Source: Eledone cirrhosa (Eukaryota). From it: 64,000 bases of DNA. A model generated the notes under the pieces. It had not been told where the DNA came from, made no database searches, and was given only the letters and a program-made list of their open reading frames with translations. Of this stretch, positions 4,881 through 57,679 are shown piece after piece. Position 1 is the stretch's first letter. Every line of letters begins with the position of its first letter. The translations under genes and the position numbers were made by a program. The stretch covers positions 24,118,001 through 24,182,000 of the forward strand of contig OZ024750.1 of the NCBI GenBank assembly GCA_964016885.1, written 5' to 3'.

Positions 4881-5207
4881 GATGTGAAAACTCAAAACTC
4901 CGAAAGTGCCAACATCTCTACTCCAGGTGAAACTACTACACCTGCTGTGGAGACAAATGTTTCAGAAGCTCCAGAATCTCCTTCTATTGTTGTTGCAGCA
5001 TCAAATGGTAGTCACAGCAAAGATATAACAGTGAACTCATCTTCCACTAGTGATTCAACTTCTACTTCAGCAACAGTAGCTAGTGGTGGGAAAAATATAG
5101 AGGAAATTAATTCTAACCCAATTAACACAGCTCACAAGCAAGTTGAGCTTGCTGAAACATGTACAAATGAACAGACAACACAGCCAATATTAGAGGCTGC
5201 AGCTTAG
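4881..5207 (+). CDS. CASC3: Terminal coding exon (Ser/Thr-rich) of CASC3-like gene
   Basis: tttctttag acceptor ending 4880, in frame DVKTQNSES...LEAAA*. Followed by an A/T-rich 3' UTR with AATAAA near 5763. Confidence 0.65.
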   Translation, partial: DVKTQNSESANISTPGETTTPAVETNVSEAPESPSIVVAASNGSHSKDITVNSSSTSDSTSTSATVASGGKNIEEINSNPINTAHKQVELAETCTNEQTTQPILEAAA

Positions 5208-8551: not shown

Positions 8552-8855
8552 TGTATTCATTTTTGTTGATGACCATAATTAATTTGTGAGATATATCGAT
8601 AACTTAGGTGTCGTTATTGGCTGATTTGATGATCGTTAAGTTGCTGATCACATTAAATGATTGCCAATTGCCCTGATGAATTTGCTCAATTCTTGCCATC
8701 TCACTACTGAATTCCAGAGAGATATACTCTGAATCTGTTTAAACCCCATTAGCATTGAGTAGGATAATGATTAGCACAATGTTGCATTACTACACATTGC
8801 ATGAATCATCTCGTGGTATTGTGATTTTGTTAACTTATTAATATATATATATAAT

Positions 8856-9185
8856 GGAGGCACATGGCTTAGTGGTTAGAGCATTGGCCTTGCAATCAAA
8901 AGGTTATGAGTTCAATTCTCAGACCAGGTGATGTGTTGTTTCCTTGAGCAAGACACTTTATTTCACATTGCTCCAGTTTACTCAGCTGTAGAAATGAGAT
9001 GATAGGGACTGGGGTCCCTATCATACCACTGCAAAGTGGTCGTGTAGGCGCCACGGAAAAAAAGCACCCAGTAAATGAGGTTGGTGTTAGGAAGGGCATC
9101 CAGCTGTAGAAATCAAGCCAGAATCAGTTCCCGTCCCACCCTTGCAAGCAGGGAAAAGCAGACGTAAAATGAAATGAATGAATGA
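8856..9185 (+). mobile_element. tRNA-derived SINE family S1 (CORE-like body, RTE tail)
   Basis: A box TGGCTTAGTGG, B box GAGTTCAATTC, CCTTGAGCAAGACACTT...CAGCTGTAGAAATG body; tail shared with the LINE end at 29514. Confidence 0.85.
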
Positions 9186-9391
9186 AAATATATATTATAT
9201 CCAGGTAGTGTAACTTGGAGTTACTGTAGGTTCACCTGGGTGAGCACTCGATGTTTAGGTTAGAGCTAGACAGAGTGTCATCATCATCATCATCATCTTA
9301 GTTTAACGTCCATTTTCCATGCTAGCATGGGTTAGATTATAGTAAAATAAAACAAGGACGAGTGGTTACTCCTTCATTACATTTATTGGTT

Positions 9392-9476
9392 GGTGACGCG
9401 CATTTCGCCATTGATCAGCTCAAGGTTCGATCTGTATCGATCTAGCCCGACTCTGTAATCCATGGCTCATCAGACC
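9392..9476 (-). ncRNA. Type I hammerhead ribozyme, extended helix II
   Basis: GGU-CUGAUGA-GCCAU...AUGGC-GAAA-U-GCGC-G-UC-ACC: full core, helix I GGU/ACC, palindromic loop 3, GUC cleavage triplet. Confidence 0.8.
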
Positions 9477-9523
9477 CCTTATAATGGTAATGAAAAAATC
9501 ATTTTTTCATTACCATTATAAGG

Positions 9524-9608
9524 GGTCTGACGAGCTGTGGATTAGAGAGTCGGGCTAGATCGATACAGATCGAACCTTGAGCTGATCAATGGCGAAATGC
9601 GCGTCACC
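9524..9608 (+). ncRNA. Type I hammerhead ribozyme (mirror copy)
   Basis: GGU-CUGACGA-GCUGU...AUGGC-GAAA-UGCGCG-UC-ACC; helix II kept by G-U wobbles. Confidence 0.72.
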
Positions 9609-9667
9609 AACCAATAAATGTAATGAAGGAGTAACCACTTGTCCTTGTTTTATTTTACTATATGTAC

Positions 9668-9702
<35 letters not shown>

Positions 9703-10255
9703 CATATAACTTAACTGCAGGTGAATAGAAAAACTGTATTGTTATTAATCTAGATCAGCGGTCACCAAATGGTGGTCCGCAGAAAAATATGGACATTATT
9801 TGGAATTTTTAACAAAAATAATATTTGGTTAAAATGTTTTTAGAACCCCACTAAAAATGTTTCTCCTCATTAATTAACTAACATCCATGAAAGAATTTTA
9901 CACATATGTATCATCTATTGACAATATGACACATGTATGCTTCAGTATTGTTTCGACCATTGACCATTAATTCATATTAGTGGTCCATGGGATTTAAAAT
10001 TATGAATTTAGTGGTCCGTGTAGAAGGAAAGTGAGAGATGGACTGTGTAGAGGGAAAATATGACAGAAACAGGACATATTTGGGGGGAAATATGTGCATG
10101 GAAAGGGGTGTATTTGTTGGAAATACTGTGTTGGATCACAACATTGGTTTCTTTCTGAAGAATGTAAGTTTGCAGAAACAGTAGACACATGACTATATGT
10201 ATTCAGTACAAAGAAAAAACTAGTTATAAACAATTATTGAATATACGACATGTAC

Positions 10256-18270: not shown

Positions 18271-18358
18271 ATCATATATATATGTAAAAGGTAAGCAGGA
18301 ATAACAACAATCAGTACAGTATATATACAGTTAATGCTTGAACTAGCAGGAAGAGGGT

Positions 18359-20389: not shown

Positions 20390-21800
20390 TGCAGAAGAGA
20401 ATTATACTCTTGTAAAGTATCTCCATTTTAAGGAGGTGTGCCTCAAAGAACAGTTTTGATGTCACTACTATTTCTAATACCCAGCCAGTGTAGAAAGCAA
20501 GGGTGAACTTTCACTGATTCATCTTCCCCAACCAATATAGAGATGATGTAGTGACTGAAAAAAACATCCAGTAGATGATTTTAATGATTCAAAAATGAGG
20601 ACAACAGCCTGCTGAATGAATCAAGAGAAGGACACCCAAAAGAGCTGGATTCTGATATATTGGAAGCCACTGTTGATGTGAACCTAACTGTTACAGTTTA
20701 GGAATTAAGCACTTACTTCAATGTGAGCCATGTCATCATTCATAAGGAATTGAAAAGGCTTGGAAAAGTGTCAAAGGTTGGAAAATGGATTCCACATGAT
20801 CTCTCTGCAGACAATCACAATGTGTGATTGGATATGCGGGGAATAATTCATTATGAGCTGCTGGGCGTATAATCAAACAATAACAGCCAAAGTCTATTGC
20901 CAACAGCAAAGATGTTTCAAAACAGCTTTGCAGCTAAAACACCTGTAGTGACCTACATTCTGCGGGCTCACATACATCCTCTTCTACTGGCGTTGATTGG
21001 CTGAGCTGAGCCAAATCACGCACAGAGAATGTATGTGAGCCCGCGGAATGTAGGTCACTACAATCCTACATTCCGCGGGCTCACATACATTCTCTGTGCG
21101 TGATTTGGCTCAGCTCAGCCAATCAACGCCAGTAGAAGAGGATGTATGTGAGCCCGCAGAATGTAGGTCACTACACACTCATCATTAACAAACAAAAAAG
21201 GAGTTATCCTTCATCATGATAACACAAGACATCACATTTCACAAAAGACCAAAGATCTCAGAGAAAAACATGCCTGGGAAATTATGCTTCACTCACCATA
21301 TTCTTTGGATATTGCACCAACTGATTATCGTCTCTTTAAAAGTTTGCGAAATAATTTGAGTGGATTAAGACTTACTTCGAGAAGATGTCAAACATGAGTT
21401 AGTTTTCTTTTTTAGTTCAAAACCTACAGGATTTTATGAATGTGGCATTAACAGGTTTATTGACTGATGGAGAGAGGTCATAGAGAAGAATGCTGAATGA
21501 ATAAAGAGTAGGACACCATTAATGATTAAATAAATCTGATATTATGTTTTTTATCGGTAGAGCGTCGGACACCATCCTTTTCAGCATAGAGTTACGGCTG
21601 TTTACGGTCTGAGTTCAAATCCCACTGAGGTTAACTTTGCCTTTCATCCTTATGAGATCGATAAAATAAAGCACCGGTAACGTACTGAGGTCGATTTAAT
21701 CAACTTTCCCCTCCCCACAAATTACTGGCCTTGTGCCTATACTAGAAATCATTGTTTTATTGAGCTTAAAAACAGACAGAACTTTTATTACAACCTCATA
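20390..21800 (+). mobile_element. Mariner transposon fossil
   Basis: Degenerate GKWIPHDLS, GVILHHDN and HSPYSLDIAPTDYRLF motifs; TIR-like end at about 21770-21800. Interrupted by a palindromic insert and a SINE. Confidence 0.85.
20944..21175. mobile_element. Inverted dimer of a 119-bp TIR element inside the mariner
   Basis: Unit 20944-21062 has 34-bp TIRs (TGTAGTGACCTACATTCYGCGGGCTCACATACAT); it is followed by its reverse complement 21065-21175, which lacks the first 8 nt. Confidence 0.8.
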
Positions 21801-25328: not shown

Positions 25329-26281
25329 TTAACCCTTTAGCATTTACATTACTATATATTTACTATTGTATTTTTGTGGTAAAGGCTTTACCTCACATAA
25401 TACCGTACCTATGAGATTTTTATATTATTTATTTTGAGAACAATACCATAACATCAATATGAGTGGTCAGTTACGGCTGGTTTAAACAGGAAGAGGTAAG
25501 AGAATTTTGGCCAGATAAGGCCGGTTAAAATGCTAAAGGGTTAACAGACTTGTTGAGCAACACCAAGATGGCTACTTTGGAGCTCATGGCAGAAATGGGT
25601 ATTTTCTGAGATATTGAAGAGGGACCAAGATTCCTGGAGTCCTGGCATTAATGCAGGCCAGATTAACTTCATTCTTACCATAAACCAGAATTAGGTTTTC
25701 ACCCCACCACAAATTTACAGACGTTCAGACTGAACATCAATTTTACCAATCTCTCAAATTGAGGAGGGTCTGTGAATGTCAATAGCACAGCCCATTCCTC
25801 CTGATTAACCCTTTAGCATTTAAACCAGCTGTATCCGGTCAGAATTCTCTCACCTCTTTCTGTTCCAACTGGCTGTAACTGGCCACTCATTGTTAAGGCA
25901 TTGTTCTCAAAATAAATAACATAAAAATCTCATAGATTCTATATTATGTGAGATAAAGTCTTTACTATGAAAATACAATAGTATATATAGAATAATGTAA
26001 ATACTAAAGAGTTAAACATTAAAAAATATGAGGCTTACTGAATGATATCTAATCTGCCTACTGTTAACCCTTTAGCATTCACATTACTCTATATATAGTA
26101 TTATATTTTCATGGTAAAGGCTTTACCTCACATAATTATCTCACATAATATCGAATCTATGAGATTTTGAAAGTATTTATTTTGAGAACAATACCTTAAC
26201 ATCAGTTTGAGGGGCCGGTTACAGCCAGTTTCAACAGAAAGAGGTAGAGAATTCTGGCCGGTTTGAACACTAAAGGGTTAA
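25329..26281. mobile_element. Three piggyBac-type MITEs in alternating orientation (25329-25544, 25805-26015, 26064-26281)
   Basis: Each has TTAA flanks and TIRs. Confidence 0.88.
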
Positions 26282-26695: not shown

Positions 26696-26773
<78 letters not shown>

Positions 26774-26990
26774 TTTATTAAAATAACAGATTAAAGTTTA
26801 AGCAAATAATCGCTGCTTTCACCCTTAACGGGATCTTCAGAAGATCCCGTTAAGGGTGAAAGCAGCGATTTTTTGCTTAAACTTTAATCTGTTATTTTAA
26901 TAAATAGTTGCTCTACGGTTCTTATATATTTGATATATATTTATCCTTATCGAGCCTTCTTTGGATTTTAGTCTTCAAATTTATTATTAT

Positions 26991-27023
<33 letters not shown>
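26513..27023. repeat. (TA)n tracts with embedded element fragments
   Basis: Three (TA)n runs; similar runs at 3899, 4157, 19116, 29570, 30499, 31912, 54070 and 56955. Confidence 0.9.
26773..26905. mobile_element. 133-bp fold-back centred in a hammerhead-like core
   Basis: 66-bp arms around a26839; minus strand CUGAAGA-U-CCC(GUUAA)GGG-U-GAAA; lies between (TA)n tracts. Confidence 0.65.
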
Positions 27024-27027
<4 letters not shown>

Positions 27028-29567
27028 ACTGACTATTTGTAACACAAACTTCCAGAAACCTGCCAATCACCTAATAACCTACAAATCTGGCGAGCACATA
27101 AGCCAGATTGACTTCTTACTAGTTAGGCAGCGGGACAGGCAGATAGTGTCTAATATCAAGGCATACCCTGGGGAAGAATGTACCCCACAGCATAGATTAG
27201 TCGTTAGTGATATCTCAGTAAGCAAGAGATGGAATGAGACATACAGGAAGGTGTGGAGAAGAAAGGTCTGGAAGCTAAAAGACCTTTCACTAAAATACAA
27301 ATTTAGGAAAGCCCTTCAAGATGTATATGACGAAAAAGAAGACGATTTAGAGACGTATGACATAGATAATAACTGGAATTTCTTACGTGACAACTTACTG
27401 CAGGCTACTAATGAAACTTGTGGTTTCATTACAGGGAGTGACAGACAGGTTTCATTACAGAGAGTGACCTGGTGGTGGAACAGCACAGTAGATAAGGCCA
27501 TTAGAGACAAAAGACTAGCATGGAAGGCTTGGAAAAAGAGTGGGAGTAGGGAAGAATATATAGCCGCTAAGAGAGAAGCTAGACGTCAGGTGTACTTAGC
27601 ACGCAGGGAGGCTGAGAGTGGGAGGTTTGCTAATGTTCTGCGACGCGAAGATCAGAGGTGTGCGGTGTTCCACATTGCAAGGCAGTGTGTCAATGCAAAT
27701 CAGGATGTTGTTGGAGATAAATGTGTCCGGAATGATGCCGGTGTACTTAGTGTCACGAATGATCAGAAAAAGGAGGCCTGGAAATGTCATTATGAGAGAC
27801 TGATGAATGTGGAGAACGAATGGGAGAGGGAGAAATTACCTTTAGTAGATCCGACAGAGGGACCAGCTATTGAGATTGACCAATATAGGGTCCAAGAGGC
27901 GATTAAGGAAATGAAAAATGGTAAGGCTGCTGGACCATCGGGAATAGTTGCTGAGATGCTGAAGGTATCAGGGGACATAGGCACTAAACTGGTTGCACGC
28001 ATCATCAATCAGGCTATATATGGTGGTGTCATACCCAAAGACTGGTGCAGCAGTATTCTCATAAATTGCTACAAAGGTAAAGGGGATGCTCTGGAGAGGA
28101 GCAATTATAGGGGTATAAAACTGATGGATCAGGTTATGAAAGTGGCAGAAAGGATATTAGCACAACTAATTAGAGAAAGGGTCAAACTAGATGAGATGCA
28201 GTTTAGTTTTGTGCCTGGGAAGAGTACAACAGATGCCCTCTTCTTGGTGAGACAATTGCAAGAGAGATTCTTAGAGAAAAATAAGCCACTATCCTTAGCC
28301 TTTGTTGACCTAGAGAAGGCCTTTGATAGGGAACCCCGATCTGTCATCTGGTGGTCCCTAAGGAAACTAGGTGTTGAGGAATGGCTTGTGAAGACAGTGC
28401 AAACTTTGTACAGAGGTACTGTCAGTAAAGTCAGGGTAGGAATGGAGTTTAGTGAGGAATTCCAGATACAAGTAGGAGTACATGAAGGTTCGGTCCTCAG
28501 CCCGCTCTTGTTCATTATAGTCCTCTAAGCCATAAGAGAGGAGTTTAAGACTGGCTGTCCATGGGAACTTCTCTATGCTGACGGTCTGGTTCTTATAGCA
28601 GAATCAGTAGAGGAGCTAGAGAATAAATTCTGGCTATGGAAACAGCAGTTGGAAGCAAGAGGACTGAGAGTGAACCTAGCTAAGACAAAAGTGTTGATGA
28701 GTAGAAAAGAGGACAAAACTCTGATTCCGTCAGGGAAATGGCCATGCTCGATATGCAGAAAAGGAACTTGCATAAATTCTATAAAATGCACGCAATGCAG
28801 ATCCTGGGTACACAAGAGATGTAGTGGGATAGCAGGCAAACTAACAGGTAGGGAGAAATATGTATGCAGTAGATGTACAGGGAAATTGGACAGTAGAAGT
28901 CGCATTGATAGACACATTTTTCAAATGCAGGAGGGTGCTATAGAAGTGGTGGATAGCTTCCGGTACCTAGGAGATCAGATTAGCATGGGAGGAGGGTGTT
29001 CTGAGGCCATAGTATCTAGAATAAGGATGGGTTGGAAGAAGTTTAGGGAGCTGCTTCTTCTGCTGACGAAGAAGGGTTTCTCCCTGCGTATGAAAGGCCG
29101 GTTGTATGATGCCTGTGTGAGGAGCGCGATGCTGCATGGTAGTGAGACATGGGCAGCAACTGCAGAGGATATGCGACGGCTGGAGAGAAATGAGGCAAGC
29201 ATGTTCTATTAGATGAACAGTGTAAATGTGCGTGAACGACCCATCATGAATGTGTTGAGAGAGAAACTGTGTCTGAGAGGGATAGAATGTAGTGTGCGAG
29301 AGAAGAGACTGAGGTGGTATGGACATGTGATGCGCATGGAGGATGACCGATGGGTGAAGAAGTGCCAGGAAATGCCAGTTGAAGGAAGATGTGGTAGAGG
29401 TAGACCATGAAAAACATGGGTGGAGGTGGTGAGAACAGACCTCAGATCGTTGAAGATCACGGTGGAGATGACGAAGGACCGTGACGAGTGGAGAGATGCT
29501 GTGCTGAATAAGACCCGTCCCACCCTTGCGAGCAGGGAAGAGCGGACGTAAAAAATGATGATGATGA

Positions 29568-34017: not shown

Positions 34018-36007
34018 AATTGTTGCTTTTCCTTCTCTTTTTCTATTGCCCACGTTATTTAATACTCTCAGTGTGAGTTCGCGTGTTTTTTCTAAATTTA
34101 GCAGAATTTGTTATTCGATTACTTGACAGATTAAAACAAACATCTTTGTATTAAAACCGCACACAATGTATTTTTTTGGATCAATATTGTTTTAAAGACA
34201 TCTCTAACCTAATTAATATATCGTTCCTAATCTTGAAACTGCAGGTGACGTGCTAATACAGCCGACTGTTTATCAATGAATCTTGTTATTTTCAATTATT
34301 ACGAAGAAAATACCATTTTACTTTCTGCATGCTTACTCTATAAACTGCATAGTTCTACCCCCCCCCCCCCCCCCCCTCCATCTAAATAATCGGTAATCTT
34401 CATTGCTGGGGAGCATATATCAGTTTTGACATTTTATGATAATGTCAAGTACACTAGAAACTCGATCAAATCAATTTTTGTAATCGAAGTTCACTTCACC
34501 CAAACCAAAACATACTTCAAAACGATTGAATATTGAATCCAATGAGACATATTGACCTGATATGTATTGTTTGTTTTTTATTTCAACACCAGCCAACCAT
34601 ACTTTCTCTCTTTCTTATAACATTTGCTTCTTACAGTTGACTGAGATAATCTGTACAATAAGCTTAACTAATCTTCAACAGTTGTCTAAATCTAAACAAC
34701 CAACAATGCCGTTGTCACTTTCAGCCTAATTTTTAAAGCATCGCATTCTCTTTTCTTATAAAAGCCTTTGTGTCCTTCTTTATGTAAGATATTATCGTCG
34801 ACATTATCATTTGCATGCGTGGCAAATAAACATTGTTTTAGATACTATTATTATATCAGGCATTTCTTCATTTTTTTAACATTAAAAAAAGATATCATTC
34901 GAAAGAATGCCTGATATAATAATTATTTCTACTTTTGGCACAAGGCCAGCAATTATTCAGTGCATTACTGGTACTTTATTTTATCGACCCCTTACGGGGT
35001 AGAAACAATTATTATATCGGGCATTCTTTCGAATGATATCTTTTTTTAATGTTAAAAAATGAAGAAATGCCAGTCACTCGATAAAATAGGTACTTGTCAT
35101 AAACTGGGATCGTATCAACCGTAGGTTTCCCTTGCAAATATTTACCTTTATGCCGATGATATTGTTAACCACACTCGAAAAAAAATTTTTTTTTGAGGAT
35201 GGCTGGGTGGGTTTAAATCACACTATTGTTTTCATTTAAATGAAAGAAAACATAATCAAGCTATATCTTGATTTCATTCCTGCTAATATCCACAATAACA
35301 GCTGACACGAAGCTTATTTTCCGCATGTTGAATGAGAGATAAAGAAAGGCAAGAATACTATATTAATACTACCCGAAAATTAATCTCAAACAACTGAAAA
35401 GGAGGAGGAAAAATCAATGCGTATTCGGTTTTGTGTCGGGGGGGGATATTGTTTGAGTGGACCAAAATCGTAATCATAGAAAACACTGATATTAGCTGTT
35501 GTTCAACAATGGTGTGTATATATTGTGGTTAGTTTAGCTACAATGAGTCATGTATATATATATAATTATATATATATATATATGTGTGTGTATATATATA
35601 TATGTGTGTGTGTATATTATGCTACATTTGAAATAAATTGCTGTTCGGCGGTTTACGTTGCTTTGATGCTAGGATTATAGACTGGTGTTTTATTTTATCG
35701 CTTTTCGGCCTCACAGGGTCGATAAAATAAAGCACCAGTAATGCACTGAGGCCGATTTAATCGACTTTCCTCTCTCCTTAAAATTGCTGGCCTTGTGCCT
35801 AAAGTAGAAACAATGATTATAGCACAGATCTCATAAAGAAAACATGTTTAGCTTCTTCACAGCATCATCAGTTGGGATAATTTTCTTATCACTGTCCTCA
35901 CTTGAAGCATGTTTATTTTTTATTTGATATTCATGCAATTTAGTTATTTGCAAATGGTAATAGTACGAATTATTGCGTGTGAGGTAGATAGGTTATATTT
36001 CCAGGTA

Positions 36008-56882: not shown

Positions 56883-57011
56883 AGATTTGTGTGTCAATGT
56901 GTTAGTATAAAAGTATGTTTGTAAGTTTTTATATTTATCATAAAAGTGTTTCAATATATATATATATATATATATATATATCAAATAATTGTAATGGTAG
57001 TTAAGATGGGT

Positions 57012-57204
57012 TTAAATCACCATAATTGTTTATTACATTATATATATTTCTGTTACATGGTTATTCATGTGACTTCATCAGATGCTTATGCAATCATTGG
57101 TGCAGTTATGCAATCATCGTAATCGCATAAGCATCTGACAAAGTCACATGAATAACCATGTAACAGAAATATATATAATGCAATAAACAATTATGGTGAT
57201 TTAA
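57012..57204. mobile_element. Fold-back element with hammerhead motif on each arm
   Basis: Arms of ~80 bp. Minus 57085-57035 reads GCAU-CUGAUGA-A-GUCACAUG...CAUGUAAC-A-GAAA-UAUAUA-UA-AUGU; plus 57131-57181 is the same with core CUGACAA. Confidence 0.75.
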
Positions 57205-57679
57205 TCCCGTATGCTTTGCAGCAAAGAGTTACGGCTCTTTATGGTCTGAGTTCAAATACTGCCAAGGTTAACTTTGCCTTTCATCCTTACGGGGTCGATA
57301 GAATAAAGTACCAGTAATGCATTGGAATAATTGCTGGCCTTGTGCCAAAAGTAGAAACAATTATTTGATAAATGAGTACTTTGACTAATTATCACTTACT
57401 TGGGATAAACTACTGACATGTAGTGCTTTGGGTTGCTAGGACCTGCTTATCATTAGGAAATTACAATGTAACAACTAAGATAAACAGCACTCTTCTGCAA
57501 TATATTTATATATATATATATATATATACATCGTTTTTGTATTTGTTTTACAAGATTTGTTTTACAAGATTTGTTTTATCTGAAAACGTGTTTTGACACG
57601 GATATTGTTATACTTTGGGAGTTGCTGCCAATAAAAACACATACACATACACATACACATACACATGTCCACATACACC

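Follow-up and report, generated by a model that had tools for sequence, protein, structure and literature searches.

A 325-bp palindrome in Eledone cirrhosa formed by two head-to-head copies of an abundant repeat end, likely Penelope-like, with predicted hammerhead motifs

A palindrome of 325 bp in Eledone cirrhosa in all likelihood arose when the 3' end of a 5'-truncated repeat of very high abundance, likely a Penelope-like element (PLE), inserted once into TA-rich DNA and was probably duplicated head-to-head by fold-back; the two predicted dimer-type hammerheads that it carries are probably silent. The palindrome lies in a 64,000-nt stretch of AT-rich, repeat-laden animal DNA (assembly GCA_964016885.1, contig OZ024750.1, positions 24,118,001 to 24,182,000, forward strand), referred to here as the window, and all positions given are those of the window.

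Results

The palindrome is a genuine head-to-head inverted repeat

An inverted-repeat search recovered the 325-bp palindrome that an earlier, sequence-only reading had described, as two arms of 162 nt each that are complementary at 157 of 162 positions (97%) on either side of a single nucleotide, C9500 (Table 1). On either side the mirror symmetry stops precisely where the element itself ends (3'), and the sequences outside the two arms show none. TATA is found at each end of the long inverted repeat, and no target-site duplication was seen around the palindrome in either flank.

The two arms differ at five positions per 162 nt. Four of these differences are at CpG positions, which account for 18 of the 162 positions (hypergeometric P = 5×10−4), and are distributed over both arms; the fifth, 9455/9545, is a non-CpG transversion. 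CG is the majority form in the repeat family at the arm-difference sites within the core (9469, 77%) and helix II (9463, 71%), in keeping with the earlier proposal that the arms diverged by CpG decay. The split of the CpG differences between the arms argues against an artefact, and the palindrome is real. Its genuineness, also claimed from the sequence, is thus supported both by these differences and by the unmirrored flanks, but the great age claimed with it is not: with a single non-CpG difference across 162 nt, the insertion looks fairly young or homogenized by conversion.

Both arms also carry the same minority letters at two sites. One is U at hammerhead position 15.2, where the family has C in 96% of the depth of sequencing run X1 (described below), and the other is C at 9362, where the family has A in 75% of the depth. 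Descent of both arms from one template is the simplest reading of these letters; arm-to-arm gene conversion could be an alternative source.

Table 1. Features of the palindrome and its flanks (window positions).
Feature	Positions	Strand	Description
Left flank	9278..9337		Separate abundant repeat with (CAT)n tail; interrupted at 9336/9337, a point beyond which its other copies extend
Left arm	9338..9499	−	3' end (5'-truncated) of a high-copy repeat that bears the hammerhead; likely the end of a PLE pseudo-LTR; 3' end outward
Predicted extended helix I	9368..9499	−	9499-9487 pairs with 9368-9380: 8 Watson-Crick pairs plus wobbles
Type I hammerhead motif	9392..9476	−	3-bp proximal helix I; CUGAUGA core at 9473; loop 3 GCGC
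60-nt helix II	9407..9466	−	Predicted 20-bp interrupted rod, −18.7 kcal/mol, z −2.36
Centre	9500..9500		One unpaired base of head-to-head junction (inverted-repeat search and contig depth)
Right arm	9501..9662	+	Mirror copy of left arm, 157/162 identical; 3' end point the same
Type I hammerhead motif	9524..9608	+	CUGACGA core at 9527; loop 3 GCGC; basal helix II weakened by two G-U wobbles
60-nt helix II, mirror copy	9534..9593	+	Predicted fold −16.9 kcal/mol, z −1.33
AATAAA	9613..9618	+	Sequence motif, 7 nt past predicted cleavage site; mirror at 9387-9382 (−)
Right flank	9659..9708		(TA)n microsatellite

The arm belongs to a high-copy family with a fixed 3' end

Four sequencing runs were aligned to window positions 9290-9525 at 80% likeness. 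Runs X1 and X2 represent one sample, possibly that of the assembly itself, X4 a second sample of the same study, and X21 raw RAD-seq reads bearing the same species label. In X1, 12,112 contigs aligned to the region, a count that includes those on the left-flank repeat. The summed contig depth in X1 was 2.2–4.7×10^5 over 9362-9441 and approximately 5,500 at 9338-9345, and fell from approximately 1,290 at 9490-9497 to 15–27 past the centre (approximately 27 at 9506-9513). Summed depth is not a copy number, but a ratio near 10^4 still indicates a very abundant family, which probably has thousands of copies. The collapse in depth at the centre indicates that the arm was amplified and the palindrome itself was not. 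No other copy of the arm was found within the 64-kb window, and no contig or read among those listed extended across the whole of 9290-9525.

The arm family has a fixed 3' end at about 9346-9354, with certain copies reaching 9338, and the predicted cleavage site of the hammerhead is 41–57 nt from this end (9338-9354). Depth decays steeply toward the 5' side, as results from 5' truncation; divergence of subfamilies upstream of 9460 confounds part of this signal. Loose contig ends before 9346 were TA-rich in X1 and X2 (30 and 33 records; agreement 0.55), and the family 3' ends adjoin TA-rich sequence, not poly(A). Head-to-head inversion is a habit of the arm family: opposite-strand joints account for 12 of the 15 joints listed out of 17 and occur at varied points (each on one contig per run, at 80% likeness), and a 333-nt contig (X4 record 17) contains both orientations of the arm.

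A second subfamily (9461-9476) appears to be marked by C at core position 4, seen in 11% of X1 depth and in 97 of 213 first-mate-plus X21 reads. In this subfamily the 5' strand of basal helix II seems to be rich in U and the upstream spacer to differ, with the helix I strands kept.

Each arm contains a complete hammerhead core

The core CUGANGA...GAAA...UH is complete in both arms with all invariant bases kept, and is accompanied on each strand by a GUC site and a GCGC loop 3, as the sequence-only reading had noted. A 5-bp basal helix II and a 3-bp proximal helix I can be folded round it. The GAAA/G12 segment is at 9406 in the minus-strand hammerhead and at 9594 in the plus-strand hammerhead, and cleavage is predicted after C9395 and C9605 (C17), respectively. 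In the predicted folds, pair probabilities were 0.74–0.98 for basal helix II and 0.18–0.30 for proximal helix I in the minus arm, and 0.31–0.34 and 0.08–0.16 in the plus arm; these figures are secondary-structure predictions that ignore the non-canonical core. Helix III had a predicted probability of 0.0 within the monomer of an isolated arm, and the loop-3 segment is predicted to form a self-duplex of 8 bp (−9.7 kcal/mol). As judged from these folds, both hammerheads are of the dimer type, which would associate via the palindromic loop 3. The U at position 15.2 in both arms results in a U15.2-G16.2 wobble.

The arm differences had also been said to keep the pairing and so to be a sign of structure. 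At this locus kept pairing is no sign of selection: a C-to-T change in a C-G pair always gives a U-G wobble, and the plus-arm changes weaken helix II (0.31–0.34, compared with 0.74–0.98 in the minus arm).

The hammerhead motif is beyond chance. A hammerhead descriptor matched the window twice, and had no match in any of 150 simulations of it under a first-order Markov model. Bare core-pattern matches in 4 viral and 42 metagenome loci served as a chance control, and none of these 46 matches had both a helix II of at least 5 bp and a helix I of at least 3 bp. The Rfam hammerhead models gave no match in the palindrome, at the gathering score or at E up to 10, a miss to be expected given the 50-nt insertion in helix II. 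Rfam matches over the palindrome were confined to sub-threshold ones of hairpin type; matches to microRNAs were dismissed because any long hairpin gives them.

The 40 family variants listed, out of 88, comprise 8 in the flank and 32 that were mapped onto the fold. Among them none is at C3, G5, A6, G8, A9, A13, A14, A15.1, U16.1, or C17, and the core changes are U4 to C (11%) and G12 to A (3%). An AATAAA after each cleavage site had been pointed out from the sequence; the motif is present where claimed, partly within the predicted helix I, but a role as a poly(A) signal is not supported, the family ends being TA-rich. The extended helix I (Table 1) is predicted to close a 132-nt domain round the core. 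The palindrome centre is at the 5' edge of this helix, and the arm thus consists roughly of one such domain and a tail of 30 nt. Since the helix is closed at its outer end by weak wobbles, the agreement between centre and domain edge may be coincidence.

Variation in the family mostly respects a long helix II

Helix II comprises 60 nt in each arm, the 5-bp base plus 50 nt, which matches the earlier estimate of about 50 extra nucleotides. The predicted rod has 18–20 pairs, and its stability is only moderately better than that of shuffled sequences (Table 1). This length is shared by the repeat family and is not peculiar to this copy. Thirteen of the listed family variants at 5% or more of depth are located in helix II, six at unpaired and seven at paired positions. 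One of the six would convert a G-A mismatch to a U-A pair. Of the seven, four preserve the pair, one, at 9463 (9% of depth), breaks it, and two depend on a compensating partner variant, which the family also has (9411 for 9462, and 9464 for 9409). The partner variants match poorly in frequency (39% compared to 13%), probably due to a diverged subfamily that is clipped at 9460. Within the extension, variants occur at 1 of the 30 paired positions and at 4 of the 18 that are unpaired (Fisher P = 0.059, for unphased, listed variants); 9 of the 38 places in X1 that vary at 5% or more are outside the listed variants. These data suggest that family variation mostly respects helix II pairing, and the parent element probably maintains the long helix II under structural constraint.

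Both hammerheads are probably silent at this locus

The hammerheads are on opposite strands, so that no single RNA has both and there are no dimer partners in cis. The predicted folds of the read-through RNAs (−306 and −299 kcal/mol) leave no base of the hammerhead unpaired; each RNA would contain one hammerhead together with its full antisense in a 162-bp duplex. The idea that the two ribozymes act as a working pair, as the sequence-only reading might suggest, is difficult to reconcile with the opposite strands and with this full-length hairpin. In the PLE work presented in PMC4209133, the minimal monomer assayed exhibited no cleavage and PLE hammerheads cut weakly even as dimers. For the PLE analyzed in PMC11167929, cleavage required the element's protein, and insertion in vitro did not require cleavage. 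Based on the predicted burial in a duplex and the weak or protein-dependent cutting of published PLE hammerheads, the hammerheads of this copy are probably silent, and the copy itself is probably an inactive fossil.

Discussion

Relationship to Penelope-like elements

The parent ORF was not recovered, and we therefore infer PLE membership from anatomy. The traits present are a hammerhead near a fixed 3' end, 5'-truncated copies, inverted partner copies, and AT-rich or (TA)n targets; they make the PLE origin put forward from the sequence a likely one. No RT/GIY-YIG ORF linked to the arm was found within the 64-kb window, and blastn found no homologues of the arm in the 46 viral and metagenome loci. 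The consensus ends of octopus Naiad and of Hydra (Hydra-1) in the PMC8557442 supplements did not match the arm by motif search and by eye, a comparison that line-broken motifs could escape. A short open frame from an ATG in the 3' strand of helix II was rejected as an ORF start, since the ATG is altered at 9411 (63%) and 9409 (39% of family depth).

The motifs in the arms resemble the hammerheads of metazoan PLE pseudo-LTRs (pLTRs), as presented in the motif collection of Cervera and de la Pena (2014, PMC4209133), in their type I topology, CUGANGA/GAAA core, short helix I (2–5 bp in that collection, against 3 bp for the proximal part in the arms), palindromic loop 3 with positions 15.2-16.2 likewise palindromic, and occurrence mostly as solo truncated copies. 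The same source describes hammerhead pairs on opposite strands, 100–700 bp apart, in Schistosoma PLEs. Unlike the motifs given there, the arms lack an extra nucleotide between A9 and G10.1, have a U-G wobble at 15.2-16.2 in this copy, and have 60 nt of helix II plus loop, compared to at most approximately 23 nt (a by-eye count) among the 56 motifs of its Fig. S3. The overall layout resembles that of the inverted pLTRs described in PMC3846280 and by Craig et al. (2021, PMC8557442), which are 5'-truncated head-to-head copies with 3' ends outward in a TA-rich target and with the hammerhead within approximately 60 nt of the 3' end. Penelope-13_HM has one hammerhead per strand, and (TA)n is the preferred target of several PLE clades (PMC8557442). 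In contrast to published inverted pLTRs, the entire insertion here consists of two exactly symmetric 162-nt arms, without an ORF, target-site duplication, or the 30–40 nt PLE 'tail', both arms finishing at the same base; tail and duplication are both described as optional in PLEs.

The nearest precedent for the long helix II is PLE-X1_sMoe of spike moss, for which File S2 of PMC8557442 gives a 9-bp stem and 35-nt loop. At 53 nt this is the longest helix II region among the 34 rows of that file, and the hammerhead is flagged there as departing from canonical structure. PLE-X1_sMoe is a plant element, endonuclease-less and rDNA-targeted, and is unrelated in sequence to the arm, which differs in its 60 nt, predicted paired rod, and palindromic 4-nt loop 3. 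The 60-nt helix II is thus a mildly new feature that exceeds both published PLE tables; the helix II referred to as 'long' in PMC13725137 is of 6–8 bp. Metazoan non-LTR retrozymes, as characterized in PMC7229834, are likewise high-copy animal repeats, and the helix III of their type I hammerhead is also weak and palindromic. They differ in being tandem monomers, with loop 1-loop 2 contacts and a helix II of the canonical short kind, whereas the arm is an inverted stub that is 5'-truncated and dispersed. The family was not found described in the literature, our coverage of which did not extend to Repbase, Dfam, and subscription journals; 'ribozyme' and 'palindrom' are absent from the main text of a 2026 Octopus vulgaris repeat paper.

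A fold-back model for the insertion

In the model that we favor, reverse transcription would have begun near the 3' end and halted after approximately 160 nt, and the cDNA may then have folded back at the A/T-rich centre and been copied. The opened hairpin would have been joined to a TA-rich target, after which the arms would have drifted chiefly by CpG decay. In the parent RNA, cleavage after GUC would take place only once two same-sense copies pair via the self-complementary loop 3. Head-to-head palindromic junctions of Penelope elements have been read as self-priming by Arkhipova et al. (2013, PMC3846280). Alternatively, synthesis could have been primed at each of the two broken ends, given that both strands are cut and extended by a purified PLE protein (PMC11167929); the asymmetric joints of other family copies would be more readily explained by such two-ended priming. 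That a short inverted repeat was already present at the fold-back point is hinted at by a single paralogous contig (X4 record 23, to 9507); others stop at 9497-9499. The choice between the two mechanisms is treated as unresolved in PMC8557442, and a symmetric junction with letters common to both arms provides a clean case for distinguishing fold-back self-priming from two-ended priming.

Alternative explanations

The arm could instead be the 3' end of a non-autonomous hammerhead element (retrozyme- or SINE-like) or of another class of retroelement, mobilized in trans. The arm has no linked ORF, very short copies seem to dominate the family (depth at the centre is approximately 0.3% of the peak), and a preprint (10.64898/2026.07.22.740005) derives animal retrozymes from PLE pLTRs. 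We nevertheless consider such an origin unlikely. Animal retrozymes as defined in PMC7229834 are tandem repeats of approximately 150–450 bp, whereas the locus contains no tandem array and none of the 15 joints listed is a tandem joint within the arm; the two joints listed that go back belong to the left-flank repeat, and head-to-head inversion is a PLE trait. It is far less probable still that assembly, or fold-back during library preparation, doubled one arm to give the palindrome. Near-perfect symmetry about a 1-nt centre would be expected of such an artefact, no long read and none of the contigs listed spans the palindrome, and X2, from the same sample as X1, has nearly no depth past 9505. 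Against this reading stand the five arm differences, of which four are CpG transitions spread over both arms (P = 5×10−4), the differing flanks, and the fact that the mirror ends at the element's 3' end rather than at a read end. X1 contigs are also present at a depth of 15–27 over 9506-9525, in what may be the assembly's own sample, and other family copies have the same layout.

Amplification of the palindrome itself, as a foldback or MITE-like unit, would account for a single long inverted repeat with TATA at either end, but is largely refuted by the approximately 50-fold fall in depth at the centre, down to single-locus level, and by the many different points at which the listed inversion joints occur; there is also no clear target-site duplication, and we give this reading hardly any weight. 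Scarcely more credible is a maintained functional ribozyme pair, which might cut divergent transcripts or produce a cleave-and-polyadenylate end. The invariant bases are intact in both cores, an AATAAA lies past each cleavage site, and the minus arm retains a stable predicted helix II. However, cis dimers are ruled out by the opposite strands, the predicted fold of read-through RNA is a complete duplex, the U at 15.2 in each arm is a minority letter of the family, and the arm differences track CpG mutability; moreover, cleavage by the PLE of PMC11167929 needed the element's protein and was dispensable for insertion in vitro.

Significance of the palindrome and of the long helix II

As an ordinary product of Penelope-type insertion, the palindrome itself matters little, and elements of this kind have been described in mirror layout before. 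The long helix II escapes both the Rfam models and the core-motif descriptors given in the methods of PMC8557442, which use 7–17 nt spacers; hammerhead counts may consequently be too low, as may the counts behind claims that a PLE family is without a hammerhead. We also raise, tentatively and as the less probable case, that the 50-nt extension and long distal helix I might together be conserved as a functional domain in a PLE family of very high copy number, either a binding platform for the RT-endonuclease or a tertiary contact that licenses cleavage. If so, there would be a class of large hammerheads that Rfam and short-spacer descriptors systematically miss.

Additional observations

Hammerhead-like cores with a GCGC loop 3 and a 38-nt helix II region were found on metagenome contigs L019 (505-561) and L038 (1138-1194), both with a 4-bp helix I, and on the related L021 (953-1009). 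They may be genuine minimal hammerheads from a different eukaryote.

The window is rich in palindromic repeats. A second long palindrome at 20944-21175 (232 bp, 96.6%) consists of two 113-nt self-inverted units, has no hammerhead motif, and is MITE- or foldback-like; further self-inverted segments of 75–98% identity are located at 57008-57208, 26773-26905, 34859-35071, and 25805-26281. A tRNA-derived SINE-like repeat at 8850-9200, with an Rfam tRNA match at 8865-8922, has close copies near 18276, 38829, 50670, and 53147. A stop-broken LINE-type reverse transcriptase with a PHD-finger match in its C-terminal part is present on the plus strand at 26972-29212 and is unrelated to the palindrome. 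Exon-like open frames are found on the plus strand at about 2150-2355 (proline-rich) and 4881-5207 (serine/threonine-rich, ending in a stop), neither of which had a Pfam match; if 4881-5207 is a last exon, then the palindrome is approximately 4 kb beyond the stop of that gene.
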